Notes: generated from the sequence alone by a model not told the origin. A DNA stretch of 31,626 bases from an uncultured virus (IMG/VR IMGVR_UViG_3300027877_000003) (IMGVR_UViG_3300027877_000003); one strand, 5' to 3'. Shown: positions 1,930 through 27,476, counted from the first letter of the stretch. Numbers and translations: made by a program.

Positions 1930-2277
1930 GTGATGTATAAATTACTGACAATTAAAGATATTACAGAAATAGAGTTTGATAAAGAACCTGATGAAGTATT
2001 TATTACATTTAAACAAGGCGGAGAATGGGATGACTTTGTTGTTTTTACTAATATTTATACTTCTCTTATTAAATTATTAACACAAGCTAGATTTGTTGTT
2101 AAAATTCCTGACGGAAAAGAATTAAATATTTATTTAGATACTTCACAAATAAAGGAAGATATTTATTATTTAGCCTTTCCAGATCAATATTTAAGTTATA
2201 GCAAAGAAATTATAGAATATTTTCCTACTGTAGTTCAAATAAGAAAAATAAAAATGAATGGGAAATTTCAACTATGA
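1930..2277 (+). CDS. hypothetical phage protein
   Basis: 115-aa ORF, GGAG RBS, overlaps the ligase start. Confidence 0.65.
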   Translation: MMYKLLTIKDITEIEFDKEPDEVFITFKQGGEWDDFVVFTNIYTSLIKLLTQARFVVKIPDGKELNIYLDTSQIKEDIYYLAFPDQYLSYSKEIIEYFPTVVQIRKIKMNGKFQL

Positions 2278-3164
2278 TTAAATATATGCACATAGAAAGA
2301 TTAAATACAGACGATGTTGAAGGAATTTTAAATGGTACTATTTATATTCAACCTAAAATAGATGGTACTAATGGACAAGTTTATTTTGAAAATCCAACTA
2401 TTCAATGTGCAAGTAGAAAACTTTTATTAGATGCTAATAATACAAATCAAGGATTTTATAATTATGTTGTAGAAAATTCTGGAATGTTTATGGCTTATTT
2501 TCTAAAACATCCTTACCATATTTTATATGGAGAATGGTTAGTACCACATACTTTAAAAACTTATAGAAAAGATGCTTGGAGAAAATTTTATATATTTGAT
2601 GTATTTGATTCTTATTCCGGAATGTATTTAAATTATGATAAATATTATTTAGAATTACAAGAATTTAATCTTCCTTTTGTTCCTGTAATTGGTAAACTTT
2701 ATAATGCTAAAGAAGAAGATTTAGTTAAATATCTAGAAAATAATAAATTCTTAATAGAAGATGGTAAAGGATCTGGAGAAGGAATTGTAATAAAAAATTA
2801 TGAATTTGTTAATAAATATGGTAGAGTTACTTGGGCTAAATTAGTTAGGAATGAATTTAAAGAGGATCATATTAAAACAATGGGATATCCAGAAGAACAA
2901 TTAAAACCTATTGAATTATCTATTGCAGAAACGTTTGTAACAGAAGGTAGATTAAATAAAATCAAAGCTAAAATATTAACTGAAAAAGAAACTGGTTGGA
3001 ATAGTAAATATATTCCAGAATATTTAGGAAGAATTTGGAATGAAATAGTTACAGAAGAAATGTGGAATATTTTAAAAGAATTTAAAAATCCTATAATTAA
3101 CTTCAAGAATTTAAATAGATTTATTATTCATGTAACTAAAGAAATAGATAAAGAGGTTTTCTAA
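2274..3164 (+). CDS. RNA ligase (Rnl2-like nucleotidyltransferase)
   Basis: Motif I KIDGTN, SR, YGEW, FYIFDV, VPV, GEGIVIK, AK; helical C-terminal domain (FVTEGRL). Confidence 0.85.
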   Translation: MIKYMHIERLNTDDVEGILNGTIYIQPKIDGTNGQVYFENPTIQCASRKLLLDANNTNQGFYNYVVENSGMFMAYFLKHPYHILYGEWLVPHTLKTYRKDAWRKFYIFDVFDSYSGMYLNYDKYYLELQEFNLPFVPVIGKLYNAKEEDLVKYLENNKFLIEDGKGSGEGIVIKNYEFVNKYGRVTWAKLVRNEFKEDHIKTMGYPEEQLKPIELSIAETFVTEGRLNKIKAKILTEKETGWNSKYIPEYLGRIWNEIVTEEMWNILKEFKNPIINFKNLNRFIIHVTKEIDKEVF

Positions 3165-4432: not shown

Positions 4433-6313
4433 TTAGTCTTTGATTCCTACATTTAATATCTGAAAACTTTTACTATTGTTCCTATAAATGGTAGAACTTT
4501 TTAATCCGCTTTCATACATTAACATATAAGCATTATATATATCTTCGGGAGTTGAATTCTCTTTCATATTTATTGTTTTACTAATAGAATTATCAATAAA
4601 TTTCTGCCACGCCGCTTGCATAAAAATATGCCTTTCCCAAGAAATATCAAAAGAAGTTAAGAAAGCAGATCCAATCGACTCCAAATTTTTAGGAATCCCT
4701 TTTAGTGTACCATGAATTTGAATATAATTTTTAATTTCTTCTCTGTCAGATTCTGAAAATCCATACTTGATTAATTTCTTTTCTAGAATGGGATTTATTT
4801 CTATAATTGAATCCTTAGCTACATTACCTATTCCTTCTGTAATATTTCTTTTATAAGCCAAAGCAAAAAATGGTTCGATAGAACTATTTACTCCTGCTAA
4901 TAAAGCAATAGTTCCTGTGGGTGCTAAAGAAGTAATGGCAACATTTCTTAATCCATTTTCTCTAATCTCTTCCATATTAAATTTATTCTTTTGAAATCTA
5001 GAGTGTAGGGATTTTTCTACTACATCTAAATTTACTTTCTTTTTATTGTATAGGTAGAAAGAACCCTTTTCTTTTGCTAGTTCAATTGATTCTAGCCAAG
5101 AAAAGAAAGAAATAAACCAGCTTAAATATTCTGCTAAATCTAAAGCATCATCAGAATCATATGGTATTTCTAATTCTGCTAATAAATCCGCCCATCCCAT
5201 TACCCCTAATCCTAATCTTCTTAATCCTTTTGATTGTACATTTATATATTTAATGGGGGATTCAGAAACAGATTGTACATCATCTAAAAATCTAACTGCT
5301 AATCTAACTACGTATTCTAAATATTCTAAATCAATTGAATTAGTTTCCTCAATATAAAATGAATGTAAATTAATTGATCCTAAACAACATCCCTCTCCAG
5401 GAAATAAAAATAATTCTGAACAGGGATTACTAGAATTTAATTCCCCTATATAATGTACCATATTATCTTCGTTTATTCTATCAAAGAAAGCTATTCCAGG
5501 ATCTCCACTTTCCCACGCCATTTTAGCCATTTTCATTAATAGTTCTTTTGCTTTTATAGTTTTTACAACTGATTTTCTATCGCTTCTAGAAATTAAATTC
5601 CAATCTAAATCTTCTTTACAAGCCTCCATAAAATCACTATTAACTAATACAGAAATATTAAAATGAGTTAATTGATCGTCTTGTAAAGTCTTTTCTAGCA
5701 CCTTAAAATATTTGCGTCCTTCTATATTCATTCCATTAACATGTAAATTGCGAATATAGTCCTCCAAAATTCTAGCATTACGATCTATTAGTTTAGATTT
5801 AAAGGTAATAAAGTTTTCTATATCTGGATGATCAATATTTAGAAAAGCTATTTGTGCTCCTCTTCTACTTGCTTGAGATATTACTTCTCCTGTTTGATCA
5901 AATAAACTCATAAAAGAAAGTGGGCCAGATGCTTTTCCAGAAGTAGTTTTTATTGGTGCATTTTTTTCTCTTACTTTACTAAAATTATATCCTATTCCAT
6001 ATCCATGAGCAAATAATTCAGCGGCTTCTTTTAAAGTATTATATATACCATCTCTAGAATCTTCCACACCTAATACAATACAATTCATTAGATTACTTAT
6101 ACCTGAATTAGAATTAGCTAGTATTCTACCTCCGGGTATAAAATTTTGATTGTAAATAACATTGAAAAATTTCTGGAAATATTCTTCTTTCTTTTCTCCT
6201 TCTGCATTAGCTATATAATTAGCCACTCTATAACAAGTTTCTTCCCAAGTTTCTTTTCCTTCCTTTGAATATTTTAGTTTATGTATTTTTGTTGCGGTGT
6301 CATTTAACTTCAT
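4433..6313 (-). CDS. nrdJ: class II (adenosylcobalamin-dependent) ribonucleotide reductase, catalytic chain without C-terminal Cys tail
   Basis: FIPGGR, LMNC, RRGAQ, FNISV, GDPG, NPCSE, CCLGSINL, RRLGLGVMG, APTGT, ISKTIN, IYRNNSK; no ATP-cone; no nrdB in window. Confidence 0.9.
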   Translation of the reverse strand: MKLNDTATKIHKLKYSKEGKETWEETCYRVANYIANAEGEKKEEYFQKFFNVIYNQNFIPGGRILANSNSGISNLMNCIVLGVEDSRDGIYNTLKEAAELFAHGYGIGYNFSKVREKNAPIKTTSGKASGPLSFMSLFDQTGEVISQASRRGAQIAFLNIDHPDIENFITFKSKLIDRNARILEDYIRNLHVNGMNIEGRKYFKVLEKTLQDDQLTHFNISVLVNSDFMEACKEDLDWNLISRSDRKSVVKTIKAKELLMKMAKMAWESGDPGIAFFDRINEDNMVHYIGELNSSNPCSELFLFPGEGCCLGSINLHSFYIEETNSIDLEYLEYVVRLAVRFLDDVQSVSESPIKYINVQSKGLRRLGLGVMGWADLLAELEIPYDSDDALDLAEYLSWFISFFSWLESIELAKEKGSFYLYNKKKVNLDVVEKSLHSRFQKNKFNMEEIRENGLRNVAITSLAPTGTIALLAGVNSSIEPFFALAYKRNITEGIGNVAKDSIIEINPILEKKLIKYGFSESDREEIKNYIQIHGTLKGIPKNLESIGSAFLTSFDISWERHIFMQAAWQKFIDNSISKTINMKENSTPEDIYNAYMLMYESGLKSSTIYRNNSKSFQILNVGIKD

Positions 6314-6878
6314 TATCTTCTATCCTCTTTAATTCTTTTTCATATTCTCTTTGTCTCTTACTTTGTTCTCTTATACCGCAATAAAACCATCTATTATTTG
6401 TTACAATAGATAAAACGTGTGGTTCAAGAACTTCTTTATTATAAGTTTCATAGCTTGGATAAGTTACAATCAAAGTCATAAATAATTTATTGAATAAACT
6501 ATGAACAATCCTATCTACTATATCTCTTAGAACTGCATAATCAATTGTTTTATTTGTTATTAATGCATCTTTATATATAGTCATTACTAATTCAGCATTC
6601 TCATGAAAAATTCTTGTAAAATATTTTTTATATTCATTTACTATTGCATGATCATCTACCCACTCTTTCCAGCTATATTCTATTCTATATTCTTTTAATG
6701 TTTTCTCTACTACTTTAAAATATTTATCAGAGCATCTAATTATATCTCCTTCTTCATCTTCAAAAAAGAAATGCCAGTCTGGATCTTTATATAAAACTTT
6801 GGCGTATAAAGTAAGTAAGGTAGTAAATCTAATTCCAAAAGGTATACCTTCTGGATATGTTAAATAAAATGTAATCAT
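6300..6878 (-). CDS. hypothetical protein
   Basis: 192-aa ORF overlapping the nrdJ start. Confidence 0.7.
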   Translation of the reverse strand: MITFYLTYPEGIPFGIRFTTLLTLYAKVLYKDPDWHFFFEDEEGDIIRCSDKYFKVVEKTLKEYRIEYSWKEWVDDHAIVNEYKKYFTRIFHENAELVMTIYKDALITNKTIDYAVLRDIVDRIVHSLFNKLFMTLIVTYPSYETYNKEVLEPHVLSIVTNNRWFYCGIREQSKRQREYEKELKRIEDNEVK

Positions 6879-6881
6879 TAT

Positions 6882-6998
6882 TTACTTCTTTCTTAAAGGT
6901 TTACTTAAAATTCCCAAGAACTGTAAAAGTTTTATTACTGCTACTACTAATCCAACTAATGCTCCAATAACTCCTAATATAAGTAATATTAATTGCAT
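6882..6998 (-). CDS. small single-TM membrane peptide (38 aa)
   Basis: Hand translation MQLILLILGVIGALVGLVVAVIKLLQFLGILSKPLRKK; AAGGAG RBS upstream. Confidence 0.6.
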   Translation of the reverse strand: MQLILLILGVIGALVGLVVAVIKLLQFLGILSKPLRKK

Positions 6999-7960
6999 GA
7001 TAATTTACTCCTTTCTTTTAATATTCTTTCAATAGCTTCTTTACAATACTCTTCTTTTCTTTCAATGCCGATCCACTTCCTAGAAAATTTCTCGGCTACG
7101 ATAGCAGTTGTGCCTGATCCTATAAATGGGTCTAATACGACTCCAAAAATTTCGGGGCTACACGCTTTGATAGGAGTTTCTAGAAGATCTACAGGAAATA
7201 CAGCAGTATGATTTGTAGTACCTCTCTCCTTGCCTATAGGAATACTCCACACGCTTCTTTTATTCCTGCCTCTCTTTAATAATTTTTCTACATTTTTTCT
7301 ATTGCCTCCAACTCTAGGGGCATTGGCTTTATAAGGATCTTTTAGATTAGAATCTATTCTTAGAATATTTCTCCTTTGATCTTTTAGACTCTGTGTGGAT
7401 GGTTCAAACTGTTGCACAAAATAATATTTCTTAGTATGTAAAACAAAATGATATATGAATTCATAATCTACTGTAAACTTCTTTTCATTGCTGGTAGGAA
7501 ATGCATTGGTCTTATGCCAAATAAGAGTATGCTTTAATAACCATCCATCCTTTCCCATAGCTACTGAAAATAAACTGGGTATATTACATAGAGTTCCTTC
7601 TGGAAGTAAAGGGACAACTTTAGTTGCTGAAAAAAAAGAACCGGAATTTGTAGTTTGTTTTGTAGTTTTTCCTCCACTACCGGGAGTTCTAGTAAAATAT
7701 TTATCTCCTATATTTACAAATAGATTTCCGGAATCTTTCATCTTTGGTTTTAGATAATGAAAGATTCTAACTAGATTCTGTACATAAAATCTAAAATCTT
7801 CCTCCTGTCCAAGTTCATCATCTGCTACATATTTTCTAGCCATCCAATAAGGAGGAGAAGTAAATACCATATCTACAGAATTATCTTCTAAAGTAGGAAG
7901 AACTTCTTCTGCCTTTCCTAAATACAAAGTACCATAATCATCCTGATAGTAAGGATTCAT
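6989..7960 (-). CDS. DNA methyltransferase, beta class (N4-C/N6-A; SPPY suggests m4C)
   Basis: Motif IV FTSPPY near the N-terminus, HTAVFP, motif I VLDPFIGSGTT, WIGIE. Confidence 0.9.
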   Translation of the reverse strand: MNPYYQDDYGTLYLGKAEEVLPTLEDNSVDMVFTSPPYWMARKYVADDELGQEEDFRFYVQNLVRIFHYLKPKMKDSGNLFVNIGDKYFTRTPGSGGKTTKQTTNSGSFFSATKVVPLLPEGTLCNIPSLFSVAMGKDGWLLKHTLIWHKTNAFPTSNEKKFTVDYEFIYHFVLHTKKYYFVQQFEPSTQSLKDQRRNILRIDSNLKDPYKANAPRVGGNRKNVEKLLKRGRNKRSVWSIPIGKERGTTNHTAVFPVDLLETPIKACSPEIFGVVLDPFIGSGTTAIVAEKFSRKWIGIERKEEYCKEAIERILKERSKLSCN

Positions 7961-8309: not shown

Positions 8310-9014
8310 TTAATTTCCTTCCAATTCAAATTGAATTCTATCCTCAGCTAATTGAAAAATAACTGGGTCATTTTCGATACCAATACAGCTACGATTATTC
8401 CTGAGACACCAGATAGCAGTAGAACCACTACCGAGAAAAGGATCAAGAACAATATCCTCTTCGTCTGTAAAAGGTAAGAGCAAGCGTTCCATAAGCTTGA
8501 GTGGTTTCTGCCATTGTACATTATGTCCATCTAGTTTAATCCTTTCTTTTGAAGTAGTATGAAAGTTTCCTAAGTCATCAAATACATCACAAGGAATCTT
8601 TAATCCTGTCCCTTTCTTATCCAGAGAAGTACCAGCAGTTACTTTAGGAATCATTATTCTTTCTGGATAAAATTTATAATCATTTCCTTTTGCATAAATT
8701 AAAATATCGTCATGCTTTTTTGGGAAACATCTTCTAGAGATACCTCCCCATTCTTGTTTATAGATACACCAATTAATAAAATTATCTTCTCCTAAGATAA
8801 AATCTAACTCTAATTTATATTTATGAACGGTATGATAATCTGTTTGTACCATAAAAATTCCATTTGGCTTTAGTAACTGTAAAGATAATGCCATCCAGTA
8901 GAAATCATTACTTTCATAAATGCAATCTCCATAGATTAAATCTATTTTACCTTCCCAAGTGCCAATAAGATCCTCCGCTATTGACACATTATCTCCTTGA
9001 AATAATTTGATCAT
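8310..9014 (-). CDS. beta-class DNA methyltransferase-like protein with atypical catalytic motif
   Basis: Start MIKLFQGDN (ATGA overlap); IDLIYGDCIY in place of DPPY; WQKPLKLMERL; VLDPFLGSGST; CIGIE. Confidence 0.8.
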   Translation of the reverse strand: MIKLFQGDNVSIAEDLIGTWEGKIDLIYGDCIYESNDFYWMALSLQLLKPNGIFMVQTDYHTVHKYKLELDFILGEDNFINWCIYKQEWGGISRRCFPKKHDDILIYAKGNDYKFYPERIMIPKVTAGTSLDKKGTGLKIPCDVFDDLGNFHTTSKERIKLDGHNVQWQKPLKLMERLLLPFTDEEDIVLDPFLGSGSTAIWCLRNNRSCIGIENDPVIFQLAEDRIQFELEGN

Positions 9015-9250
9015 ATTGATTTTCCAATCATCCAAGCACAAAAGATTACTGCTATTCCTAAGACTATCCATAAAATTATTGGCTGATTGAAGATGGTTAT
9101 AGTAAGGGAGAGATAAAGTCCTACCGCAAGTGAAATAAATATAGCTAATCCAATTATAAATTTAATTAAACCAATCCAAAATCCGGCTTCTTTTGTTTCT
9201 ATTTCTTCTCCGATATAATCGTCCATTCTATGTTTCCTTTCTAATCCCAT
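9011..9250 (-). CDS. small two-TM membrane protein
   Basis: Two hydrophobic stretches after an acidic N-terminus. Confidence 0.6.
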   Translation of the reverse strand: MGLERKHRMDDYIGEEIETKEAGFWIGLIKFIIGLAIFISLAVGLYLSLTITIFNQPIILWIVLGIAVIFCAWMIGKSI

Positions 9251-10271: not shown

Positions 10272-10477
10272 TTGTTCTCCTTTTTCTTTTCAAACCATAT
10301 TTTATTAATTAAATTTCCATCTCTCCATTCAGTTGAGTAACACATAATAATTTTATCTGGTGGAAGATCTGTTAACTTTGCAAATGCACATGCAAACTCC
10401 TCAATGTGTGACATTATATTTTTTGCTATCTCATTCGTAAAGATATTCAGATCTGAAGAGTAATTGTTTAAACTCAT
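10268..10477 (-). CDS. hypothetical protein
   Basis: 69-aa ORF overlapping the primase end. Confidence 0.5.
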   Translation of the reverse strand: MSLNNYSSDLNIFTNEIAKNIMSHIEEFACAFAKLTDLPPDKIIMCYSTEWRDGNLINKIWFEKKKENK

Positions 10478-11297
10478 CTAAGCTGTTCCCTTCTCTAAAA
10501 AAGTCTACTGTATCATATTTCTCTGGATAATTAGTAAATCGGCAAATCCGTGTTCTAAAAATTCCTAGACTCTTTGCTACTAACTCAGCGGCCTTCTCTC
10601 CTGCCTCATCATGATCGGCTATATAATAGATTTCCTTTTGATTAGTAAAGTATCTTATCCAGCCTTTATCCCATCCTAAATTTCCACTGGTATGACTCAT
10701 AGCAGGAAATCCTAATTGATTTAAAAGAATGGCGTCTACTGGGCCTTCTGTAATTAATACTGTAGTAGTTAGCTGTAGTATAGAACTGTTGAATAAAAGT
10801 CCTCCTACCCCTGTATACCAAGGTCTGATAGTTTTAGGTTCATCCTTTCTGCATTGAAAATTTCTAAACGCTCCATCCATAAAGATAGGGATTACATTCC
10901 AGTCATCTAAATATCCTAATAAGAATCTATCTATTGTAGTATCAGTCAGACATCTTTTATACCAGTATTCTCTATTGTTTTGTCCATTTTCCCAAGCTAT
11001 CTTAACTAGTTCTGGATAGACGGAAAACAATTCTTCTTCCGGTCTAATAAATAATCTATCTGATATACCTTGATTAATGGGTATAACTCCATTGTCTAGA
11101 GTTTTCATAGCCTCTTGAGCAGAAAGTAACTTTACTTTAGTGAGCCAGTCATATGCATTCCCATATAAATTTTTGCTATTCCAGAAAAATAGATCTCTTT
11201 CTCTATCAATGACAAGAGAATTATGCTCCTCTGTTCTGCCCCACCTACCAGAACCAATTACTCTATAGTCTTGAGAGATAAGTTCTTCTATAGTCAT
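10431..11297 (-). CDS. DNA primase (TOPRIM)
   Basis: LFN, ITEGPVDAI, ADHDEAGEKAA, KYDTVD. Confidence 0.85.
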   Translation of the reverse strand: MTIEELISQDYRVIGSGRWGRTEEHNSLVIDRERDLFFWNSKNLYGNAYDWLTKVKLLSAQEAMKTLDNGVIPINQGISDRLFIRPEEELFSVYPELVKIAWENGQNNREYWYKRCLTDTTIDRFLLGYLDDWNVIPIFMDGAFRNFQCRKDEPKTIRPWYTGVGGLLFNSSILQLTTTVLITEGPVDAILLNQLGFPAMSHTSGNLGWDKGWIRYFTNQKEIYYIADHDEAGEKAAELVAKSLGIFRTRICRFTNYPEKYDTVDFFREGNSLDEFKQLLFRSEYLYE

Positions 11298-11491: not shown

Positions 11492-11686
11492 TTATGGAAA
11501 GAATGAAAATAAAGAAACCGCTCCGATAAATAATAACATTATAATTCCAGCTAAGAGAAATAGATTTCCAGTTTTACCTGTATTTGGATTTCCTGTTACA
11601 CTACATTCAATTAATTTACTAACGCCTATAAGACCACAAGCAACTCCTAGAAATATTCCAATAACTAATAAAGAATAAATAAACAT
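11492..11686 (-). CDS. small two-TM membrane protein
   Basis: AAGGAGG RBS before MFIYSLL (11686); two hydrophobic helices. Confidence 0.65.
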   Translation of the reverse strand: MFIYSLLVIGIFLGVACGLIGVSKLIECSVTGNPNTGKTGNLFLLAGIIMLLFIGAVSLFSFFP

Positions 11687-11715
11687 TTTATTCCTCCTTT
11701 CATAATCTTTACCTG

Positions 11716-11791
11716 CACCTTCGGAGAGACTCGAACTCTCATGATCCAATTACCCTTTCTTCACGTTAGAACCGTGAGGGGATACGAAGGT
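11716..11791 (-). ncRNA. tRNA-like RNA lacking a canonical D-arm (UCU/Arg-like anticodon)
   Basis: Minus strand reads ACCTTCG TA TCCCC TCACG GTTCTAA CGTGA AGAAAGGGTAATTGGATCAT GAGAG TTCGAGT CTCTC CGAAGGT G: perfect 7-bp acceptor stem, perfect T-arm, 5-bp anticodon-like hairpin with 7-nt loop. Confidence 0.75.
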
Positions 11792-11806: not shown

Positions 11807-11908
11807 TCATGGGTTTCTCTTCAACATCAATGCCACTTGTGCCAAGATCAATCCAGCCGCTATCAATAGTAGTCCTACAATTACCATCGTTGCAGATTCA
11901 GGGATCAT
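11807..11908 (-). CDS. 33-aa single-TM micropeptide
   Basis: Hand translation [45 protein letters not shown] overlap with the LPQTG gene stop. Confidence 0.65.
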
Positions 11909-12399
11909 CTCTCCCTCCATACGTATCTGTATACATTAAGTACAAGAATAATTGCCAAACACACCAATGCACCAGTAAAAAGCAACCTGAGATCATCGTC
12001 TATGCCCGTCTGTGGCAACATCGGTATCGGCGTGGGCTTAGATGGCTTATCCTGCGTTGCCGTTATTGTGGGCGTGTAGGTTGCAGGGGTAGGTGTCAGC
12101 GTCTGCTCAGGTACAGTCGCCGTCATAGTTGGGGTATCCGGTGGTGGCGTTTCTCCTGGCGTATCGCTTGGCTGTGGTGTATCCGTAATCTGCGGTGTGT
12201 CTGTCAGTTGTGGTGTATCCGTAGGGACTGGTGTATCAGTCGGAAAAGGTGTATCTGTAAGGAACGGTGTTTCCGTAGGCGGCAATGGAGTTTCACTTGG
12301 CTGTGGTGTGTCCGTTGGTGGGCATACTACTTCCGCCTTTGCTATACCAACCCATATCCCTGCAATTGCCAAGACGATAACGATTATAAACAGTCTCAT
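11905..12399 (-). CDS. Pro/Thr-repeat surface protein with signal peptide and LPXTG (LPQTG) sorting signal
   Basis: Signal peptide ending AKA-E, about ten xx(T/S)(D/E)TP repeats, LPQTG (12004-12018), TM helix, basic tail RYVWRER. Confidence 0.85.
12176..12276. repeat. 18-bp degenerate tandem repeat coding xxTDTP
   Basis: GGTGTNTCNGT units starting at 12176, 12194, 12212, 12230, 12248, 12266. Confidence 0.85.
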
Positions 12400-12623
12400 G
12401 TCTTATCTCCTAATACTGAATCTAGAATTGCTCTTACTACTTCTTCTACTAATTCAAAAATAAATATAAGCATAATAAGTATTATCGGTAAGGGCCATAG
12501 AATTGAAAATCCAAGCCATGCAAAAATATTTTTTATATCAAGACTATCAGCTAAATAACTCCCAATAAAAAGATAGATTACAATTATACCTATAACTAAT
12601 CCTAATAAAAGATCTTCATTCAT
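12396..12623 (-). CDS. small two-TM membrane protein
   Basis: Hydrophobic helices incl. [16 protein letters not shown]-coupled to the LPQTG gene. Confidence 0.65.
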
Positions 12624-12796
12624 ATTCTAATTCCCATAGTTTTTCTTTAGCCTGTCTATTTTTATTAATTATTTTGGTTCTTCTCTTTTGCTGAATGCGT
12701 TGGATATTCTTTACAGAATCTCCATCTCTTTTCATTCCATTAATTTTCTTATATCTTTTTTTATCTCTGCGTAAAGCCTTAGTAATTTTACTCATA
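12616..12796 (-). CDS. small highly basic protein
   Basis: MSKITKALRRDKKRYKK...; Lys/Arg-rich; start approximate. Confidence 0.55.
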
Positions 12797-12997
12797 GTTT
12801 TTAAAAAAGGGAATGTCTCTATCATCCAGATAGGCATCTAAATTTGAATCTGATTTTCTATCCACTTTAATATAACCTTTACCAAGTTCTAATATAAACC
12901 ACTGATCACAGAAATCACAATATATATACGCTCTTCCGTTTATATGTTTCTTTTTTGAACAACCATTACAAATTGGACATTTTCTGGACATAATCAT
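12788..12997 (-). CDS. zinc-ribbon protein
   Basis: CPIC...CDFC. Confidence 0.6.
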   Translation of the reverse strand: MIMSRKCPICNGCSKKKHINGRAYIYCDFCDQWFILELGKGYIKVDRKSDSNLDAYLDDRDIPFFKNYE

Positions 12998-13235
12998 CGT
13001 CTTCCTTAGTTAAAGTTACTGTTCTAAAAAACATATCTAATTCTACATCTACTATTTCTTTTCTAAATTTGTCACAAATTCTTTCTAAAGCCTCATCATA
13101 GTCTATGTCTGAATCTACATCCTCTTTAATTACAATCAAATCATCTATAGCATGTTCATATGTAAGGTCATCAAATATAAAATTATCAAACATCCAGTTG
13201 CCAACATAATCTTCTTCTGAAAATAGATCTTCCAT
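12966..13235 (-). CDS. very acidic small protein (89 aa)
   Basis: AAGGAG RBS before MEDLFSEED; about 28 D/E versus 8 K/R by hand count. Confidence 0.7.
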   Translation of the reverse strand: MEDLFSEEDYVGNWMFDNFIFDDLTYEHAIDDLIVIKEDVDSDIDYDEALERICDKFRKEIVDVELDMFFRTVTLTKEDDDYVQKMSNL

Positions 13236-13262
13236 ATCTAGCTCCTTTCTTGAGTTACTCCT

Positions 13263-13273
13263 ATTATAGCACA
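13263..13273 (-). promoter_or_regulatory. extended -10 promoter element
   Basis: Minus strand TGTGCTATAAT in the gap after the IMPDH/GMPR gene; identical to 26720-26730 on +. Confidence 0.65.
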
Positions 13274-13301
13274 TAAATCCTGTAGTGAGATTAATAGATC
13301 C

Positions 13302-14261
13302 TTAGAAACTTTTCTTGATACTTCCACTTCCAGCCTCAATAAATCTTGCTCTCTGTCTGAGTTCATTCAAATTTCTAGCTCCGACATAGGTACATGCTGA
13401 TTTGATCCCATAAGAAAATTCAGAAATAAAATCTTCCAGCGATTGAGTTTTCTCTGTAGTCTTTTCCATTCCTTCTACGGATTTTACACTTTGATAATAT
13501 TCTTCTTGAAGCTTTCTGGATGCCATCCCATAGATAAGTCCGTTGTTAGAAGATTCGAAAGTTGTTGCCAAGAGACTTCCTAACATAACTAAGTCTGCCC
13601 CCGCTACAAAAGCTTTAACTGCATCTCCAGAATTCCTGATACCTCCATCAGCTACTGTAAATATATACTCACTACAATCCTGTATAGCAGTAATTTGTGG
13701 TATTCCAACTCCGGTTATATTTCTAGTAGTACACAACTGACCAGAACCAATTCCAACTCTAATCAAATCTACTCCCGCTTCCTGTAAATTTTTTGCTCCT
13801 ATTGCTGTAGCTACGTTCCCTGCCATAAGTAAACACTGGGAATTTTTAATTGTAATAAGTGCTTTTACTGACTCACAAAAATTTAATACATCGTGGGTAT
13901 ATCCATTAGCTACATCAATACAAATTATTTTAGCTCCTGCATCTAGAATAGCTCCTCTACTTGGAGAACCTAATCCTATAGACGCTCCCCAATTCTCTGT
14001 TTTATCTTTAACTTCATAGATATCTTTAAACAATTCTATTGCATCTTGATAAAATCTATGTAAGATTCCAATTCCTCCTAAATTACCTAAAGCAATTATA
14101 AGTTCTGGACTTACAATTCCTTTCATTGGAGATGCTATAACTGGAATCTTTAAAGTTAAATCATCACTTAGCTTTACTGAAAGGTCTACATCATCCCTAG
14201 AATTTACAGTAGATGGCTGAGGCTCGATCAAAACATCGTCAAAGTCCAATCCTTTTAACAT
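13302..14261 (-). CDS. IMP dehydrogenase / GMP reductase family protein, no CBS domains
   Basis: LDFDDVLI, ASPM, GILHRF, IDVANG, AGNVAT, RVGIGSGQLCTTR, ADGGIR, VMLGS, YGMAS, VEG; start 14261 overlaps the sortase stop (TAATG). Confidence 0.9.
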   Translation of the reverse strand: MLKGLDFDDVLIEPQPSTVNSRDDVDLSVKLSDDLTLKIPVIASPMKGIVSPELIIALGNLGGIGILHRFYQDAIELFKDIYEVKDKTENWGASIGLGSPSRGAILDAGAKIICIDVANGYTHDVLNFCESVKALITIKNSQCLLMAGNVATAIGAKNLQEAGVDLIRVGIGSGQLCTTRNITGVGIPQITAIQDCSEYIFTVADGGIRNSGDAVKAFVAGADLVMLGSLLATTFESSNNGLIYGMASRKLQEEYYQSVKSVEGMEKTTEKTQSLEDFISEFSYGIKSACTYVGARNLNELRQRARFIEAGSGSIKKSF

Positions 14262-14713
14262 TATTTCATTTCCTTTCCTATATTTTTTATTGGCAGAGCA
14301 ATAACAAACCTTACTCCCCAAGATTTTTTCCCATTCTTTTCTATACAAGTTTGTAAGATTAAATTATCCCTGTATAAATTTTGAACAGTGTAATATATTT
14401 TGAATATATTAAATTCATTATATCTTGTCCCGTCTTTCAGATCTATAAATATATCGAATCCATTCTTTATAACTCTTTGATATTCATCTATGTGATAAAC
14501 ATAATAAAGATATGTACTTCCATCTTCAAAGCCTATAGTTACTTTATCTCCTTCTTCTAAAGATAAAACCTCTGGATTATTATGAACCAACAACCCTATA
14601 GTGCTTGCTAAACCAAACTGAGTAAAATATGTATCGTCCACGTATGAATAATTTCCTTTCGGTTGTTGAACTACAGTTATTAAAATAGTTATAAAGATGA
14701 ATATAATTCTCAT
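14261..14713 (-). CDS. sortase-like cysteine transpeptidase (class F-like)
   Basis: N-terminal hydrophobic anchor; GLLVHN (His), LSLEEGDKVTI..DG..YLYYV, LILQTC (Cys), WGVRFVIA (Arg) in sortase order; start could be as far up as 14749. Confidence 0.75.
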   Translation of the reverse strand: MRIIFIFITILITVVQQPKGNYSYVDDTYFTQFGLASTIGLLVHNNPEVLSLEEGDKVTIGFEDGSTYLYYVYHIDEYQRVIKNGFDIFIDLKDGTRYNEFNIFKIYYTVQNLYRDNLILQTCIEKNGKKSWGVRFVIALPIKNIGKEMK

Positions 14714-14761: not shown

Positions 14762-15082
14762 TTACTTTTTTAATTCTGCTCTATATTCCTTCAAGGGTTT
14801 CAAAGCGCCAGCATAACCTAACAAAGCGGCTAATGAAGCAATCAAAACCATAGCAACGTTTCTAGCCCATCCAGTCCAGTCTGTAGGCATTACATAACCT
14901 TCAAAACCAACTAAAGCCATTACAGGAATAAGTAAGATACTAAGAACAGGAATCCCAACCTCATAAAATCCAGCAGGAAAATCATAAGTAGGGTTCTTTA
15001 AAACAAACTTTCTAAGTAACAACTTAATCCCTTCCAATAACAACATGGCTACAGCCCCCGCTGATACACTAGTCTCAAACAT
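14762..15082 (-). CDS. three-TM membrane protein, holin-like
   Basis: 106 aa, three hydrophobic segments, charged C-tail; AAGGAGG RBS. Confidence 0.5.
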   Translation of the reverse strand: MFETSVSAGAVAMLLLEGIKLLLRKFVLKNPTYDFPAGFYEVGIPVLSILLIPVMALVGFEGYVMPTDWTGWARNVAMVLIASLAALLGYAGALKPLKEYRAELKK

Positions 15083-15083
15083 T

Positions 15084-15734
15084 TCATTCCTCCTTTATTC
15101 CTAAATAGTTTTTAATAGTTTCTACTCCTTTGGATGTAAATTCTCCAAAAGAAGTATCTAAATTATTTTCCAATTCAATTTCAAAATCCTGATAATTATC
15201 TAAAGAAGTTTCACTTATATCAAAATATTCTTTTGATCCTTTTAAACTTTCTCTTTCTGGTGCTTTTATTTTAATTCTAATAACTTTAAATTCTTCTGGA
15301 AATCTAACAAAATAATGGGCTTCATTTGGAAATCTCCAATCATCAATAATTATAAAGTCCGGAGGTAAATCTCCAGTAGATGAGAAAACCCTGTCCATCA
15401 ATTCTCCTGCCCAAAAATTTAGATCTACTTCCCTTCCTAAATTTCCTATATCTTGTAACAATTTTCTGCCTTTTTTATCCTTAGCTCCGTTCCAATGAAA
15501 ACATTCTTTAGCAATTAATTTAACTCCAGTTGCAAAAGACTCGCCAACAACAAGTGGAGATTTAGTTTTTAAATATTCATATAAAGCTAAGGCTAAAGTT
15601 GTTTTTCCTACTCCAGCTTTTCCGGAAATCAGGACAATATTAATAACTTTATTAGGCCAAAGAACATTTTCCCAATCTTCTTCTAAGGCTTCCATAAAAT
15701 CTGTTACTGGAATATCGGTTCTTAATTTTAACAT
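15084..15734 (-). CDS. deoxynucleoside monophosphate kinase-like P-loop kinase
   Basis: ISGKAGVGKTT, SFA, GRKLLQDIG, IIIDDWRFPNE, SETSLD. Confidence 0.8.
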   Translation of the reverse strand: MLKLRTDIPVTDFMEALEEDWENVLWPNKVINIVLISGKAGVGKTTLALALYEYLKTKSPLVVGESFATGVKLIAKECFHWNGAKDKKGRKLLQDIGNLGREVDLNFWAGELMDRVFSSTGDLPPDFIIIDDWRFPNEAHYFVRFPEEFKVIRIKIKAPERESLKGSKEYFDISETSLDNYQDFEIELENNLDTSFGEFTSKGVETIKNYLGIKEE

Positions 15735-19586: not shown

Positions 19587-20870
19587 TCATTTTATCTTAT
19601 TGGTCTGTTCATCATACTTTAGAAAGATAGATCCAGTAGGGCCATTTCTTTGCTTGAGTAAAATGAATTCCATTATTCCTTTATCTTTAGTATCTTTATT
19701 ATATTTAGAGTCTCTGTATAATCCTACTACTACATCTCCATCTTCTTCTAGATTTCCGGACTGTCTTAGGTCAGCAAGTCTAGGTCTTTTATCATCTCTC
19801 ATTTCTACTTGTCTATTTAATTGTGAACAAATTCCAAATACAATTTCTAATTCTCCGGCTAATAATTTAGCTCTTCTAGAAATTCTACCCAACTCTGCTG
19901 TTTGATCCGCACCCCTTTCTGCTAAGATTTGAATATAATCTAACCAAGCCATATCAATATTGTATTTATATTTATATTTCCTTACTGTAGTTTCTAAATA
20001 CCCCAAAGAAGGAGTGAAACTAGAGTCAATATATATTGGTAAAGTTTTAAATAATTCAAAAGATTTTTTAATTAATTCTAAATCAACCGTGCTTAGACTT
20101 CCCATTCTTATATTAGGAGACAAAGGAATTCCAGTCTCCATAGAAATTAGTCTATCTAAAAGACTTCGCTTATCCATCTCTAGAGAAAATATAAGACTAG
20201 AAATTCCTTGTTTAGCCCCCTCTAAAACAAAGTCTAACATCAGGGATGTTTTACCATGTCCGGGTCTGCTGGCTATAAACCATAATTCTGCTGGATTCAT
20301 TCCAGCGGTGATCATATCTACTTCTTTATTTCCTGTAGTCAATCCACTTATTCCGGGGTTTTCTATTCTCTCTAATAAACTATCCCATGAATCTTTAAGT
20401 AGATCCCCTAGCTTAGAAACATAACTTCCGTTCCCTACCTGTGTTAAAGAATCTAATTGATTTCTTAAAGTTAAAATTAAATTATCTACGTTCGCTGGAT
20501 TCTTTAGATTAGTATTTGCATCCTTAGTTATCTGTAAAAGTTTTATAGCTTTATAACTATCTACGACTATCCTTTCAAATTCTTTTAAGTTTGTAGAATC
20601 TACACTGAGATCATATAAATATTTTAGATAATCTTCTCCTCCTACTTCTTCTAAGACTCCTTTAGATTGTAGATTAGCTACTATCAATCTCATATCTGGA
20701 TTTAGATTTTCTTCTAAAAGATCTTTCAACAATTTAAATATAATTCTATGAGGTTCTATTGATAACATTGAAGGATTAAAATCATGTATTTCTAAAATTT
20801 TACTAGGATTATTTAATATAATACTAATAAAAGCTACTTCTACTTCTGGATCAAATAATTTAATTGTCAT
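19587..20870 (-). CDS. dnaB: replicative DNA helicase
   Basis: SRPGHGKTS, FSLEM, LDYIQ, SQLNR, LADLRQSGNLEEDGD, KQRNGPTG. Confidence 0.95.
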   Translation of the reverse strand: MTIKLFDPEVEVAFISIILNNPSKILEIHDFNPSMLSIEPHRIIFKLLKDLLEENLNPDMRLIVANLQSKGVLEEVGGEDYLKYLYDLSVDSTNLKEFERIVVDSYKAIKLLQITKDANTNLKNPANVDNLILTLRNQLDSLTQVGNGSYVSKLGDLLKDSWDSLLERIENPGISGLTTGNKEVDMITAGMNPAELWFIASRPGHGKTSLMLDFVLEGAKQGISSLIFSLEMDKRSLLDRLISMETGIPLSPNIRMGSLSTVDLELIKKSFELFKTLPIYIDSSFTPSLGYLETTVRKYKYKYNIDMAWLDYIQILAERGADQTAELGRISRRAKLLAGELEIVFGICSQLNRQVEMRDDKRPRLADLRQSGNLEEDGDVVVGLYRDSKYNKDTKDKGIMEFILLKQRNGPTGSIFLKYDEQTNKIK

Positions 20871-21252
20871 CAAAAGCACCTTTATATTTTTCTACATCTA
20901 TATTCTGCTTGTCTATCTTCTTTTTTAATCGAGTAACATAGTCTGACAAGTCAGTATAAGAAATTGGATCTTCAGTATCTTTAGACATTCTTTTCTTTAT
21001 AAGATATGATAAAATTCCATATGGGCCTCTATCTAAATCTATATTATCTAAATCATATAAGTCTAAGATAGCAAAGAATACTCTTTCTCTTCCGTATAAT
21101 CTAACTAATTTGCCCATCAAAACATAATACTTAGAATCCTTTTCATCTTTATTGAATAAGCTACAATAGAAATTAGACAAGAGTACATGAGGACTTTTAG
21201 CCTTATGTAAATTTTCATAATAGTAAGCAGATAAGTTTTCTGGTTCAGTCAT
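20860..21252 (-). CDS. hypothetical protein (possible helicase loader)
   Basis: 130 aa directly upstream of dnaB; function inferred from position only. Confidence 0.5.
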   Translation of the reverse strand: MTEPENLSAYYYENLHKAKSPHVLLSNFYCSLFNKDEKDSKYYVLMGKLVRLYGRERVFFAILDLYDLDNIDLDRGPYGILSYLIKKRMSKDTEDPISYTDLSDYVTRLKKKIDKQNIDVEKYKGAFDDN

Positions 21253-22162: not shown

Positions 22163-22453
22163 TTATATCTCCTTGGGGTTTAATAATTCTCTCAGTTCGC
22201 CCATTACATTTGACGACAACTCTTCCAATTTAGGAATACTATCTTCTAAGGGCAGTTCATCGAGTTTTTCTGATAACTTTAGGTACTTTCTAAATGTTAA
22301 TTCTATATCTAACAGCATGAGTAATTTGATTTTGTTTGATATTATATGATCAGTAGCTACCTCCTCTGGAATTGAAGTAAAATTCTCAATCACTTTCATC
22401 GTATTAAAATTACTGATAAAAAATGTACGCTCTATTCCAATAATCCTGTCCAT
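22163..22453 (-). CDS. hypothetical protein
   Basis: 96 aa, GGAGG RBS. Confidence 0.6.
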   Translation of the reverse strand: MDRIIGIERTFFISNFNTMKVIENFTSIPEEVATDHIISNKIKLLMLLDIELTFRKYLKLSEKLDELPLEDSIPKLEELSSNVMGELRELLNPKEI

Positions 22454-23466
22454 TCGTCTTCCTCCTCTACAACCTTTTGGTATCGTTTGACACTATCATA
22501 ACACCCTTTTTTGATTTTGTCAAGAGTTTCTGGATGATCTTTTAGATATTCCTTGGTTTGATCCATTCCCTGACCCATCTGTTCTTCTTCAAAGAAGTAC
22601 CAAGTTCCTTTTTTCTTGATAACTCTCAGCATAAAAGCAAAATCTATTGCATCTCTATAAAAATCTATCCCCTTTCCGAAGATCAAGGGCATTGTATACT
22701 CCCTGAATGGAGGAGAAAGTTTGTTCTTCTTAGTTATAAACTTACAATCCATCCCTATAGAATACCCATCTTGAATATATTTCTGTCCAGCAGACAGGAA
22801 AATAAGTAGAGATGAATAGTGCTTTAGTGCATGACCTCCGGGTAAGATATAACCTCCATGATATGCTCCAATATTATCTCTTACTTGATTTACAAAAACC
22901 AAAGCAATCTTATTCTTTTTTATATTGTGGATATTCCTTCTAAAAAATGGTGTCAATAATCCTGATTGTAAAGCGACATTTCTATCTTCTAATTCTTTTT
23001 CCTTTTCTCTCTTTGGGGCTAAAGCGGCTACAGAATCTATAATGATTAATGAAAATTCTCCGGGAATTATTTCAAATTTAGTATCACCATTGATAAACAT
23101 TTCAACTAAATTCAAAGCATCTTCGGCTGTATCTGGTTGCACCATAAGAAAATTCTTAATATCAAATTCTCCTACTATTGCCCTTACAGTAGTAAAGTCT
23201 AAACTATGCTCTAGATCTACATAAACGACTTTCTCTCCTTTATCTAAAGCTTGTTTGACAATCTCCAGACATAAAGTAGTTTTTCCTACTCCTTCTGCTC
23301 CATAGATAGTTGTGATTCTTCCTTTAGGAATTCCACCAACTCCAACAGAAACATCTAGAGACAATGAACCCGTAGATATCACGTCTATTTCATCTCCTTC
23401 CTCGTCAGTAATGATAAAGAAGTCTCCAAATTTTTTAGCTAATCTATCTACTAAAGAATTAGTCAT
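22432..23466 (-). CDS. recA: RecA/UvsX recombinase
   Basis: ISTGSLSLD, GGIPKGR, YGAEGVGKTT, DLEH, IIDSVAAL, VNQVR, PGGHALKHYS, KNKLSPPF. Confidence 0.95.
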   Translation of the reverse strand: MTNSLVDRLAKKFGDFFIITDEEGDEIDVISTGSLSLDVSVGVGGIPKGRITTIYGAEGVGKTTLCLEIVKQALDKGEKVVYVDLEHSLDFTTVRAIVGEFDIKNFLMVQPDTAEDALNLVEMFINGDTKFEIIPGEFSLIIIDSVAALAPKREKEKELEDRNVALQSGLLTPFFRRNIHNIKKNKIALVFVNQVRDNIGAYHGGYILPGGHALKHYSSLLIFLSAGQKYIQDGYSIGMDCKFITKKNKLSPPFREYTMPLIFGKGIDFYRDAIDFAFMLRVIKKKGTWYFFEEEQMGQGMDQTKEYLKDHPETLDKIKKGCYDSVKRYQKVVEEEDEWTGLLE

Positions 23467-24133: not shown

Positions 24134-25984
24134 TCAACCTCCTTTAGTCCAAAATTTAGAAATCTTGCTATCAACAGCGGCTGGAATTTCTTTTAGAAAA
24201 GGTTGCTCTGCTTTTAGCATTTGATCTAGAATAAATTGCTGTGCGGGTTCTTTTATTTCTTCTTTTACCATACAAATAATTTCATCATGTACTTGCAATA
24301 AAGGTTTTAAATCTTCTCCAAATGGATTATTATAAAATATATTGCATAAAGCTATCTTAATAATGTCTGCTCCTCCTCCTTGAAATGGATGGTTAAATCC
24401 TTCTCTTTTTATTCTACCCATATACCTACGATAAGATGATGCATCTGGAAATAAAATTGGAATTTCAAAATATCTTTTTCTACCTAAAGGAGTTACAGAA
24501 AGTTTCCTTTCTATTATTTTTTCTTCAAAGATAGATTTGAAAGCCGCTAAAGTAGAATAAGTTTTATATAAAGCTTCTATCATTTCCTCTGCTTCTTCCA
24601 ATGGAATTTCAAATTTCTTTGATAATCCCCAAGCGGATGTTCCATATAAAATTGCAAAGTTAACGTTTTTAGCAATGGATCTTGGTTTTCCAATTACCGC
24701 CGCCGTTTTAGTATGAATATCTTCTCCAGCTAAATAAGCATTAATGATTTCTTTTTCTCCCGTTACTGCTCCAGCTAATCTATACTCTTGTTGTGAGTAA
24801 TCACAAGAGATTAGAACATACCCATCATCCGCTAAGAAACAGTTTCTGTATTCTTCTTCTCTAGGTATATTCTGTAAGTTTGGCTTCTTACTAGAAAATC
24901 TACCAGATACTCCACCAAAAGTATGATACTCTGTATGTATCTTCTTAGTTACAGGATTGATAAAAGGGGAGAAGCTATCTCCATAAGTAGAAACTTTTTT
25001 CTCTGCCTCTCTATATTTCAGAAGATAGTCTATTATAGCGTTGTCTTTATAATCTGTCAATACTTTTTCTTCAGTAGAAGTTATATCAAATCCTAAATAT
25101 CTTAATACTTCTAGGCATTGTATAGGAGAACTTATCTTGAAATTTTCTACAAAGTAAATCCTAATTAGGTCTGTATCTTCCAATGATTTTAATATTTCTC
25201 TTATCTTTTTTCCTTTAGCTGGAATACTAAATCTATCGCCCATATCTAAAGCATTGCTAAATTCAGTAAAATTTATTAATTCAACGATAGAATTAATAAA
25301 TTTAGTTTTATATTCTCTAGAAATTCTTTCAGCTTCTTTTCCTTTTAGTAGCCACGCCTCAAGATCGAATTTGATCCCGTTCAATTCCATTCTGACTACC
25401 ACAGGGATTACTCTCATTTCCAAATCATAGACTCTTTTTTGATTACTCTTATCTATTTCTTCTAACTGAGCAACCATTATTTCATGCAGGTAATTTACGT
25501 CTGTAGCTGAATAAACTAGTTTCTCTTGTGTAAGAACTCCGTCATAATTTATAAAGCTTGCTCGGATATCTTTTTCTATTTCTATATTCAAATATTTTTT
25601 CAGTAGAAATTTTAACGATGGATATCGATCTCCTAATCCATTAGTACAGATTATTTCAGAAATAAAAGTATCATGAATTTTAGTAATTAATTCTCCGTAA
25701 TGATAGAAAATAAATTTCAGATCAAATTTAGCGTTCTGTAATATACACAATTTTTGACCTGAATTAATCAGCGATAAAATATATTTTGTATTTTTATTTC
25801 CTAAAGAATCTACATCAAACAAATAAATATTGTCGTTTACTTTAGCTTGAACTAATACTACTCTATCTAAGATTGGATCTAGTCCTGTAGTTTCTATGTC
25901 CAAAGATATAAAAGATGCTTTATCTAAATCCTTTTGAAATTTTTGAATCCCTTCCTTAAGATCCGTTATTAGCGTAAACTCCAT
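24134..25984 (-). CDS. polA: family A DNA polymerase with 3'-5' exonuclease, no 5'-3' exonuclease
   Basis: LDIETTGLD, NAKFD, YSATD; GRFSS..PNLQNIP, DYSQQEYR, RSIAKNVNFAILYG, QGGGAD, QVHDE. Confidence 0.95.
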   Translation of the reverse strand: MEFTLITDLKEGIQKFQKDLDKASFISLDIETTGLDPILDRVVLVQAKVNDNIYLFDVDSLGNKNTKYILSLINSGQKLCILQNAKFDLKFIFYHYGELITKIHDTFISEIICTNGLGDRYPSLKFLLKKYLNIEIEKDIRASFINYDGVLTQEKLVYSATDVNYLHEIMVAQLEEIDKSNQKRVYDLEMRVIPVVVRMELNGIKFDLEAWLLKGKEAERISREYKTKFINSIVELINFTEFSNALDMGDRFSIPAKGKKIREILKSLEDTDLIRIYFVENFKISSPIQCLEVLRYLGFDITSTEEKVLTDYKDNAIIDYLLKYREAEKKVSTYGDSFSPFINPVTKKIHTEYHTFGGVSGRFSSKKPNLQNIPREEEYRNCFLADDGYVLISCDYSQQEYRLAGAVTGEKEIINAYLAGEDIHTKTAAVIGKPRSIAKNVNFAILYGTSAWGLSKKFEIPLEEAEEMIEALYKTYSTLAAFKSIFEEKIIERKLSVTPLGRKRYFEIPILFPDASSYRRYMGRIKREGFNHPFQGGGADIIKIALCNIFYNNPFGEDLKPLLQVHDEIICMVKEEIKEPAQQFILDQMLKAEQPFLKEIPAAVDSKISKFWTKGG

Positions 25985-27256: not shown

Positions 27257-27476
27257 ATCTGGCGGTAAATACCTGTGCTCTTACTGCTATAAGCCTTATA
27301 CAGATCCAACTAAAGCAGATTCATGTAGAGACAATCATGATCTAATTTATGTACAGATCTCTAGAGAAGATCTAGCTAGGCTAATGCAGTTTATATTAAC
27401 TAAAGACGAAGAGGTTTTAACAGAGAGTCTTGTTAGAAGCTTGAAGAAAATTCCTCTCAGGAAAAAGGAAGAATGA
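27246..27476 (+). CDS. small zinc-finger protein
   Basis: YLCSYC..PY.....A.SC...H. Confidence 0.6.
   Translation: MAIKSGGKYLCSYCYKPYTDPTKADSCRDNHDLIYVQISREDLARLMQFILTKDEEVLTESLVRSLKKIPLRKKEE

Follow-up and report, generated by a model that had tools for sequence, protein, structure and literature searches.

A candidate surface-display pair, a minimal sortase-like protein and an LPQTG stalk protein, in a replication gene chain of an uncultured phage

The IMG/VR virus record IMGVR_UViG_3300027877_000003 holds 46,402 bases of an uncultured virus, about 51% complete by estimate, and the stretch of it analysed here, which we call the window, comprises 31,626 nucleotides (nt). Two genes on the minus strand of the window are the subject of this report. 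The first, at 14261-14713, encodes a minimal, 150-residue homologue of sortase-like cysteine transpeptidases, recognised by its match to the NCBIfam model NF053836 and by its predicted fold. The second, at 11905-12399, encodes a 164-residue candidate for a sortase-type substrate that has a signal peptide, a stalk of T[DE]TP repeats and a sorting signal, and is otherwise stalk only. Translation returns both open reading frames (ORFs) as a preliminary description of this DNA had given them, and the second does lie on the same strand about 2 kb downstream of the first, the measured distance being 1.86 kb. The sortase-like gene starts with ATG; were a GTG at 14749 used instead, the protein would be 12 residues longer.

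NF053836, named 'sortase_YLP', matches the 150-residue protein with an E-value of 1.8e-24 (86.7 bits) over profile positions 55-194 of 195. A word-indexed search returned six homologues of 214-240 residues that are 30-34% identical to the phage protein, and a profile search of 1.84 billion representatives returned 1,323 cluster representatives at E ≤ 0.001. The model matches all 54 aligned family members, the phage protein included, and the family motifs QQP, TQF, HN, QTC and WG, which are invariant or nearly so, are all present in the phage protein. None of the six close homologues has a Pfam match at E ≤ 0.1, and sequence searches of the PDB with the single protein and with the family profile gave no matches. 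At a threshold of 1e-4, PHROGs holds no family for the sortase-like protein or for the substrate candidate; the sortase-like protein weakly matches phrog_20860 alone (E 0.0079), and at E ≤ 0.1 neither of two classical sortases and none of five other NF053836 members matched any PHROG. The INPHARED phage collection, searched with the protein and with 18 kb of DNA, returned no match. On these alignments, the phage protein is a short, divergent homologue of the NF053836 family that is shortened at its N-terminus.

Structure prediction points in the same direction. The AlphaFold2 model built on a 54-row alignment has a predicted local distance difference test score (pLDDT) of 84.6 and a predicted template modelling score (pTM) of 0.80; an earlier model from a 7-row alignment had a pLDDT of 64.9. 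When the model was compared with 48,161 PDB chains using VIA-align, ranks 1-19 were all sortases, of classes A to F, with Z scores of 9.7-6.2, and the next chain scored 3.3. Foldseek gave nine matches at E ≤ 0.001, all of them chains of S. agalactiae sortase C1, and at weaker E-values it gave more sortases plus one unrelated row among the matches listed. A fold search of BFVD gave nothing at E ≤ 0.001, the best match being an unnamed 222-residue viral protein (E 2e-3). The product of 14261-14713 is thus modelled as a sortase fold, an eight-stranded beta-barrel. It shares this barrel with canonical sortases of classes A-F (MEROPS C60; S. aureus SrtA; 5hu4, 7cfj, 9iok and 4d70) at Z scores of 9.3-9.7 over 107-110 residues and root-mean-square deviations of 2.6-3.0, together with the order and aligned positions of His and Cys and an LPXTG-type signal in the candidate substrate. 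It differs from them in having only 9-16% sequence identity, an Arg offset by one residue and no separate transmembrane (TM) anchor.

The candidate catalytic residues were located by an hhalign alignment of the family profile to ten classical Pfam sortases whose genes adjoin those of family members in Anaerolineae genomes (probability 73%, E 3e-5). His44 (GLLVHN; codon at 14582-14584, minus strand) is invariant in 54 of 54 sequences and lies opposite the His of NGHH in the classical enzymes. Likewise, Cys123 (LILQTC; codon at 14345-14347, minus strand) is invariant in 54 of 54 and lies opposite the Cys of TLxTC. The family Arg, in WGRLF, falls opposite the Arg of HRL; the candidate catalytic Arg of the phage protein, Arg135 (WGVRF; codon at 14309-14311, minus strand), stands one residue past that column. 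The preliminary description had placed His, Cys and Arg in sortase order, which the alignment bears out for His and Cys and qualifies for Arg. There are 28 invariant columns among the seven closest sequences and 10 among the 54, and these include the His, the Cys, QTC and WG.

The WGVR type is rare in our first sample, where it accounts for 2 of 157 sequences, namely the phage protein and the protein P0154. Among the 97 relatives found with P0154, however, 69 carry WG[VI]R (64 WGVR and 5 WGIR). The P0154 relatives sit on contigs of up to 5.4 Mb, one of them labelled Anaerolineaceae, and P0154 and P0168 exceed the NF053836 cut-off with 200 and 189 bits. In a quick tree the phage protein groups with P0154, with a value of 95 in the Shimodaira-Hasegawa-like approximate likelihood ratio test. 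Because WG[VI]R is kept in 69 of the 97 P0154 relatives, and because of this pairing in the tree, we read the shifted Arg as an inherited arrangement that is conserved in a cellular subclade, and not as decay in the phage. A sample of 401 genomes from the class to which G001 belongs yielded no member of the WGVR subclade, the best identity to P0168 being 44%. The family is variable at this site more generally: a large sortase_YLP subclade (P0164-P0230, the relatives of P0154) has WG[VI]R in place of WGR[LIM], and a few members have no Arg there (P0116 and P0259, WGLT; P0237, WGLL; L086, WGLF).

The N-terminus of the phage protein carries a 13-residue hydrophobic run, IIFIFITILITVV, with a mean Kyte-Doolittle value of 3.3. 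Cellular members of the family are 200-300 residues long and have an N-terminal TM segment, a linker of 40-100 residues and a helix before the core, whereas the phage protein begins where the first core strands of its cellular relatives lie (MRIIFIFITILITVVQQP in the phage, compared with VRGLYVQDILALQVVQQP). The two nevertheless share the motifs named above, and WGVR is common to the phage protein and one cellular subclade. From its composition, the hydrophobic segment may be a signal or an anchor. One other phage copy of the family, L005, has the same start point and also a hydrophobic segment, MNIILSVLIALHLFTVIPQ; this likeness favours the anchor reading, under which the first core strand would be missing or would double as the anchor.

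The product of 11905-12399 has the anatomy expected of a sortase substrate. Read from the sequence, residues 1-22 (12334-12399, minus strand) are a predicted signal peptide, with MR, a hydrophobic core and AKA|EV, and LPQTG occupies residues 128-132 (12004-12018). LPQTG is followed by IDDDLR, by a 19-residue hydrophobic segment at residues 139-157, and by the basic tail RYVWRER at residues 158-164 (segment and tail together, 11908-11985). The best 15-residue window of the C-terminus has a mean Kyte-Doolittle value of 2.95, and three Arg lie in the last eight residues. The stalk region has 104 residues, among them 30 Thr, 29 Pro and 9 Asp; it holds seven T[DE]TP units, and the DNA shows tandem repeats of period 18/36. 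The layout in the preliminary description therefore stands, and its "nearly pure" Pro/Thr repeats prove to be 57% Pro plus Thr.

We applied a strict scan for sorting signals, in which [LIVMN]PxTG, a hydrophobic 15-mer and at least two Arg or Lys in the last eight residues were required, to 599 six-frame ORFs of at least 60 residues from this phage and 12 other viral loci, together 202,343 bases. The product of 11905-12399 was the sole positive. The sorting-signal model TIGR01167 gives it 13.6 bits (E 0.081), below the cut-off of 15.9. TIGR01167 is a short model that, in six-frame searches at E ≤ 1, matches 14 of 14 control genomes, and it is a poor judge here because it passes its own cut-off in 9 of those 14. 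The substrate candidate has no homologue in a set of 5.8 billion proteins. A predicted complex of the sortase-like protein with stalk residues 112-164 (score 0.02, mark 0.32) speaks neither for nor against a pairing.

The two genes belong to a tight chain. Eight minus-strand genes occupy the stretch between 15082 and 11905, each overlapping its neighbour or lying at most 48 nt from it. A gene for a 106-residue protein (14762-15082) ends 48 nt upstream of the sortase-like ATG. An IMPDH/GMP-reductase-like gene (IMPDH, inosine monophosphate dehydrogenase; GMP, guanosine monophosphate) follows at 13302-14261 (PF00478, E 2.2e-70), its ATG overlapping the sortase-like stop codon (TAATG). The stop codon of a gene for a 75-residue protein with two TM-like hydrophobic segments by eye (12396-12623) overlaps the start of the substrate gene (ATGA). 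All three are on the minus strand.

The exact proteins of both genes are recorded on 7 and 8 contigs, of which the longest has 93,626 bases for both. Of the words sampled from a 3.7-kb stretch, two thirds or more occur in each of six sequencing runs from three freshwater or wetland metagenome studies; four of the six may be the source. Near-identical copies in several runs retain both genes. In three further DNA runs (X6, X7 and X8), contig pieces that fit end to end show no differences, and one X8 contig fitted partly. One of these identical pieces, a contig of 1,006 bases, spans the substrate gene completely and has the same number of repeats. Contigs from an RNA library are identical over 11970-12120, in the substrate gene, and over 14778-15042, in the gene for the 106-residue protein, at low depth and with DNA carry-over possible; none of the contig pieces from the four runs, the RNA library included, covers the sortase-like gene, an absence that has no bearing on expression. 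Peptide patterns run against viral and metagenome contigs brought up no close relatives, and none of eight viral loci reached through the IMPDH-like neighbour (28-36% identity) carries the NF053836 family.

Scans with PHROGs and Pfam reveal a minus-strand module of replication and nucleotide-metabolism genes around both candidates. It includes genes for a DNA polymerase (24134-25984), a UvsX-like recombinase (22432-23466), a DnaB-like helicase (19587-20879), a deoxynucleoside monophosphate kinase (15084-15734), a primase (10431-11297) and a ribonucleotide reductase (4433-6313), all on the minus strand, and also RusA, exonucleases, dUTPase and two DNA methyltransferases. The same scans found no structural, lysis or integration genes across the 46 kb, and a tRNA search of the phage sequence found none. 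A phage origin is well supported, and "replication operon", the term in the preliminary description, is a fair description of the surroundings of both genes. The guanine-plus-cytosine (GC) content of the phage is 29.8%.

The cellular range of the family is centred on Chloroflexota, a monoderm phylum. A scan for sequence patterns, run on a single genome from each species with patterns drawn from Anaerolineae-like sequences and hence biased towards them, gave 35 confirmed loci, and 35 of 35 carry Chloroflexota titles (Anaerolineales, Anaerolineaceae, Bellilinea, Longilinea, Pelolinea and metagenome-assembled genomes named "Chloroflexia"). An even sample of 301 genomes from the G001 phylum includes nine with sortase_YLP, as compared with none of 14 control genomes. 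Three second genomic copies (L086-L088) lack both a nearby substrate and the WGVR arrangement; one of them is the WGLF copy without Arg.

Stalk-only proteins are native to these bacteria as well. Each of five Anaerolineae genomes examined encodes one, of 180-215 residues (L052:967-1614, L056:1480-2103, L057:1075-1617, L054:1030-1611 and L059:979-1617), with an acidic N-terminus, a TM segment, a low-complexity region rich in Thr, Ala and Pro, ALPxTG[FI][AM][DE][DN], a second TM segment and RRLR. The preliminary description had ascribed this type of sortase and Pro/Thr-repeat LPXTG proteins to Chloroflexota (Anaerolineae); the 35 loci support the first attribution, and the stalk-only proteins rich in Pro/Thr or Thr/Ala of all five genomes support the second. 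Near-full-length matches to the stalk-only family (E < 1e-30) occur in 21 of the 301 sampled genomes, and all nine sortase_YLP-positive genomes among the 301 also hold a stalk-only protein; this co-distribution is not independent evidence, because both are confined to one clade. The phage protein, of 164 residues, resembles the Anaerolineae proteins in its N-terminal membrane or signal segment, low-complexity stalk, LPxTG with acidic residues, TM segment and Arg-rich tail. It differs from them in lacking their acidic cytoplasmic N-terminus and uncleaved-looking anchor. In a profile comparison, 13 columns of the phage protein align with ALPKTGFAEDVGL of the Anaerolineae family, a likeness at the level of the motif only (probability 11%, E 0.0028), and beyond these 13 columns no homology was detected.

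Five further viral contigs, which represent four or five lineages, carry the NF053836 family. In one (L003/L083) and its near-twin (L004/L084), both with a GC content of 57%, the family member carries a complete TM N-terminus and follows replication-initiation genes. In another (L005/L085; GC 46%) it follows primase and helicase genes, and in L081 (GC 55%) it lies at the contig end; the fifth contig (L002) is taken up below. The NF053836 scores of the other viral copies are 202.3, 174.7 and 152.7 bits, which pass the cut-off, and 113.9 bits, which does not. The viral copies are dispersed over the quick tree, and every one has a long branch. Capture of NF053836 by phages is thus recurrent. A cis-encoded substrate is so far found only in this window among the six viral contigs.

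We tentatively propose that the two genes form a phage-encoded surface-display pair, a minimal sortase and an LPQTG stalk within a chain of replication and nucleotide genes, with which they would be expressed; we regard this as quite possible, if still short of probable. The pairing draws support from the common strand, the single gene chain, the presence of all four canonical substrate elements and the precedent of phage class B sortases with substrates (bioRxiv 10.64898/2026.10.24.761521). The enzyme would be a 150-residue minimal sortase descended from an Anaerolineae-type sortase_YLP, from within the WG[VI]R subclade. It would have lost the usual N-terminus of TM segment plus linker, and its very hydrophobic start may serve as a signal or an anchor for export. 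Its partner would be a secreted, acidic Pro/Thr stalk of 109 residues, followed by LPQTG, a segment that spans the membrane and a tail rich in Arg. Sec would export the stalk precursor and the C-terminal segment would keep it in the membrane, where Cys123 of the phage enzyme would attack the Thr-Gly bond of LPQTG and hand the stalk to an amine of a cell-wall precursor, so that infected cells would become coated with a phage-made stalk. The most plausible effect would be altered receptor access, leading to superinfection exclusion or sparing progeny from adsorption to debris. A bolder version, in which phages of Anaerolineae-type hosts have repeatedly captured this non-canonical sortase family, missed by standard sortase models, and here pair its 150-residue form, a signal or anchor joined straight to the core, with a mimic of the host stalk protein, possibly decorated by the glycosyltransferases of the phage, that re-coats the wall against other phages, seems to us clearly unlikely.

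A number of findings weigh against a surface-display pair. The phage protein falls under the curated cut-off of NF053836 (86.7 as compared with 125 bits), and NCBI names that family 'putative sortase'. The preliminary description had expected a sortase fold, and the structural searches, with sortases at the top, agree, but the Pfam Sortase model (PF04203) gives 13.3 bits where its threshold is 26.6 (E 0.069). Val134 fills the near-invariant Arg column of the family, with Arg135 next to it, and the branch of the phage protein in the quick tree is very long, at 3.56. The hydrophobic N-terminus aligns with strands beta1-beta2 of the homologues and not with their TM anchor, and it follows that the run cannot be anchor and core strand at once. 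Four genes stand between the sortase-like gene and the substrate gene, 1.86 kb further on. The GC content of the phage also contrasts with the 40-66% of the 35 cellular loci; the host is probably a Chloroflexota monoderm, which this gap leaves unsettled.

The cellular loci give no clearer indication of what the family recognises. In 10 of the 35, a classical Pfam sortase, closest to class E and below the class E cut-off, is convergent just after the sortase_YLP gene. In five of these ten loci a protein ending in LIPVTG[ATF]D, a spacer and a TM segment is encoded upstream of the classical sortase; four of these proteins also have a basic tail. We considered LIPVTG[ATF]D as the cognate motif of sortase_YLP and rejected it, since these substrates lie upstream of and are co-oriented with the classical sortase and so belong to it by position, which again detracts from our proposal. 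The convergent pairs (L006, L008, L014, L015, L017, L018, L022, L030, L032 and L040, at about 5500-7900) are followed by a response-regulator gene in seven of ten loci.

In the main alternative to a surface-display pair, the two genes act separately: host sortases would anchor the LPQTG stalk, and the phage enzyme would act on host surface proteins, for example by releasing, re-routing or over-anchoring them, as copies in phages without a substrate would have to. Prophage-encoded LPXTG proteins that are anchored by the host sortase are known, as with SasX of S. aureus. All five host-type genomes with the family hold PF04203 matches of their own, two to seven each, that could anchor an LPQTG protein, and such genomes hold their own signals of LPxTG plus acidic residues like that of the phage. 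Moreover, a sorting-signal ORF is present in none of the five other viral contigs with the family, in flanks of 6-8 kb on each side (in L081, only about 0.4 kb past the gene). Even so, the single viral contig of the six that has a substrate encodes it in one gene chain with the sortase-like protein, and the phage enzyme would be redundant were host enzymes enough. We consider separate action rather unlikely.

A second alternative takes the sortase-like protein for a wall or lysis accessory enzyme that passes a holin-like pore and cuts or remodels wall-linked proteins or peptide stems. The copy in L002/L082 (GC 34%) invites this reading and detracts from surface display, for it scores 202 bits, lacks a signal peptide and is flanked by tail-fibre genes on one side and an M23 endolysin-like peptidase on the other; at L002:5938-7999 that peptidase is followed by two small ORFs that start with hydrophobic segments, the position of a lysis cassette. 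In L003, an M23 peptidase lies 3.7 kb downstream of the copy. In the window, the 106-residue protein encoded just upstream of the sortase-like gene has three TM-like hydrophobic segments and a charged C-terminus, and its closest Atlas feature clusters are viral (0.92), with Phage_holin_5_2 at 0.86 as a weak lead only. That protein, however, has no Pfam or PHROG match, to a holin or otherwise, and no similarity to the small membrane protein of L002. In addition, no endolysin was found in the 46 kb, the phage copy has a hydrophobic N-terminus of its own, and the VIA-align search gave sortases only. A role in lysis is very unlikely on this evidence. That the sortase-like gene is a decaying, non-catalytic passenger and the Pro/Thr protein merely membrane-tethered or secreted has in its favour the lowest family score of the viral copies (the others span 113.9-202.3 bits), the longest branch, the truncated N-terminus and the Val in the Arg column, and yet it is hardly probable at all given an intact reading frame, the columns that stay invariant among the closest sequences and across the family, an Arg arrangement that matches a conserved cellular subclade, and contig pieces from X6, X7 and X8 that show no differences where they fit end to end, though none spans the sortase-like gene.

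The concept of a phage sortase with its substrate is already in print. An October 2026 preprint (bioRxiv 10.64898/2026.10.24.761521) reports that 24 huge phages of the gut carry 24 SrtB genes, next to each of which, upstream, lies a substrate gene whose product bears a PXTG signal, and its authors state that, to their knowledge, sortases were previously undocumented in viral genomes. They suggest that phage proteins are displayed on the surface of the host and speculate that receptors are thereby masked. The preliminary description knew of no described enzyme-substrate pair in a phage replication operon; the view that none is described in phages is accordingly out of date. The huge-phage modules resemble the present one in encoding both a sortase and a substrate with proposed surface display, and the two differ in family, size, habitat and likely host phylum, cargo and spacing. 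The SrtB proteins are PF04203 class B enzymes related to those of Bacillota, from phages of more than 200 kb in animal guts, whereas the enzyme described here is an NF053836 protein of 150 residues that Pfam does not detect, from freshwater or wetland samples and a smaller phage (46.4 kb, longest contig 93.6 kb). Their substrates lie immediately upstream and often have folded SHIRT or FctA domains, whereas the substrate candidate here is stalk only and lies downstream, with four genes between. The PF04203-based reference screening that the preprint describes would not retrieve an NF053836 enzyme. In the accessible full-text literature we found no account of the NF053836 family, nor of phage sortases beyond that preprint, whose supplementary tables could list related genes.

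If the pairing is real, covalent remodelling of the wall by phages would extend beyond huge phages of Bacillota in the gut to mid-sized environmental phages, to a second, Pfam-invisible sortase family and to Chloroflexota, whose envelope biology is barely studied. The 150 residues would then be the smallest natural sortase scaffold among those compared, and so could interest developers of tools for protein ligation. In the WG[VI]R subclade, nature has in effect tested how far the sortase active site tolerates a moved Arg, and a candidate substrate that travels with its enzyme offers a handle on what the putative sortases of NF053836 recognise.

Phage-made envelope proteins have other precedents. 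The lipoprotein Llp of phage T5 blocks superinfection. Lom of phage lambda, an outer-membrane barrel, is cited in this connection in the preprint (bioRxiv 10.64898/2026.10.24.761521). Like the proposed stalk, these are envelope proteins made by the phage during infection that would alter receptor access; they are a lipoprotein and a barrel of diderms, respectively, and neither is known to be attached by a phage-encoded transpeptidase.

The remaining observations concern other parts of the phage. A small ORF at 11492-11749 (minus strand), of 64 residues from an internal Met, has two hydrophobic segments and the loop GNPNTG. It scores 17.7 bits with TIGR01167, above the cut-off of 15.9, and was considered as a second substrate; it was rejected because it has no basic tail and because of the laxity of that model in the control genomes, and it reads as a protein with two TM segments. 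Scans for promoters and terminators gave nothing above shuffled sequence. Upstream of the window and reaching into its positions 1-84 (G000:C1:1715-9642) lie genes for an amidoligase, a phiEco32-like COOH-NH2 ligase, a class-II glutamine amidotransferase, a peptidase C26/GATase and a RuvB-like protein, a cluster that resembles the peptide-ligase or base-modification cassettes of phages. Four DNA-methyltransferase-like genes within 31.6 kb (6989-7960, 8310-9071, 27473-28075 and 29507-30106) and a further methyltransferase-like gene at 31009-31626 suggest a heavy investment in anti-restriction. Sugar genes lie at 30088-30834 (plus strand) and beyond the window at G000:C1:41178-44724, and they comprise GT11, a cytidylyltransferase, a SIS-domain protein, GT25 and two GT2; the targets that this cluster might modify include a polymer of the cell surface, the Thr-rich stalk and DNA. 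Finally, an RNA ligase gene (phrog_548, E 3.5e-46) lies at 2274-3164 on the plus-strand arm, among small ORFs without a family.

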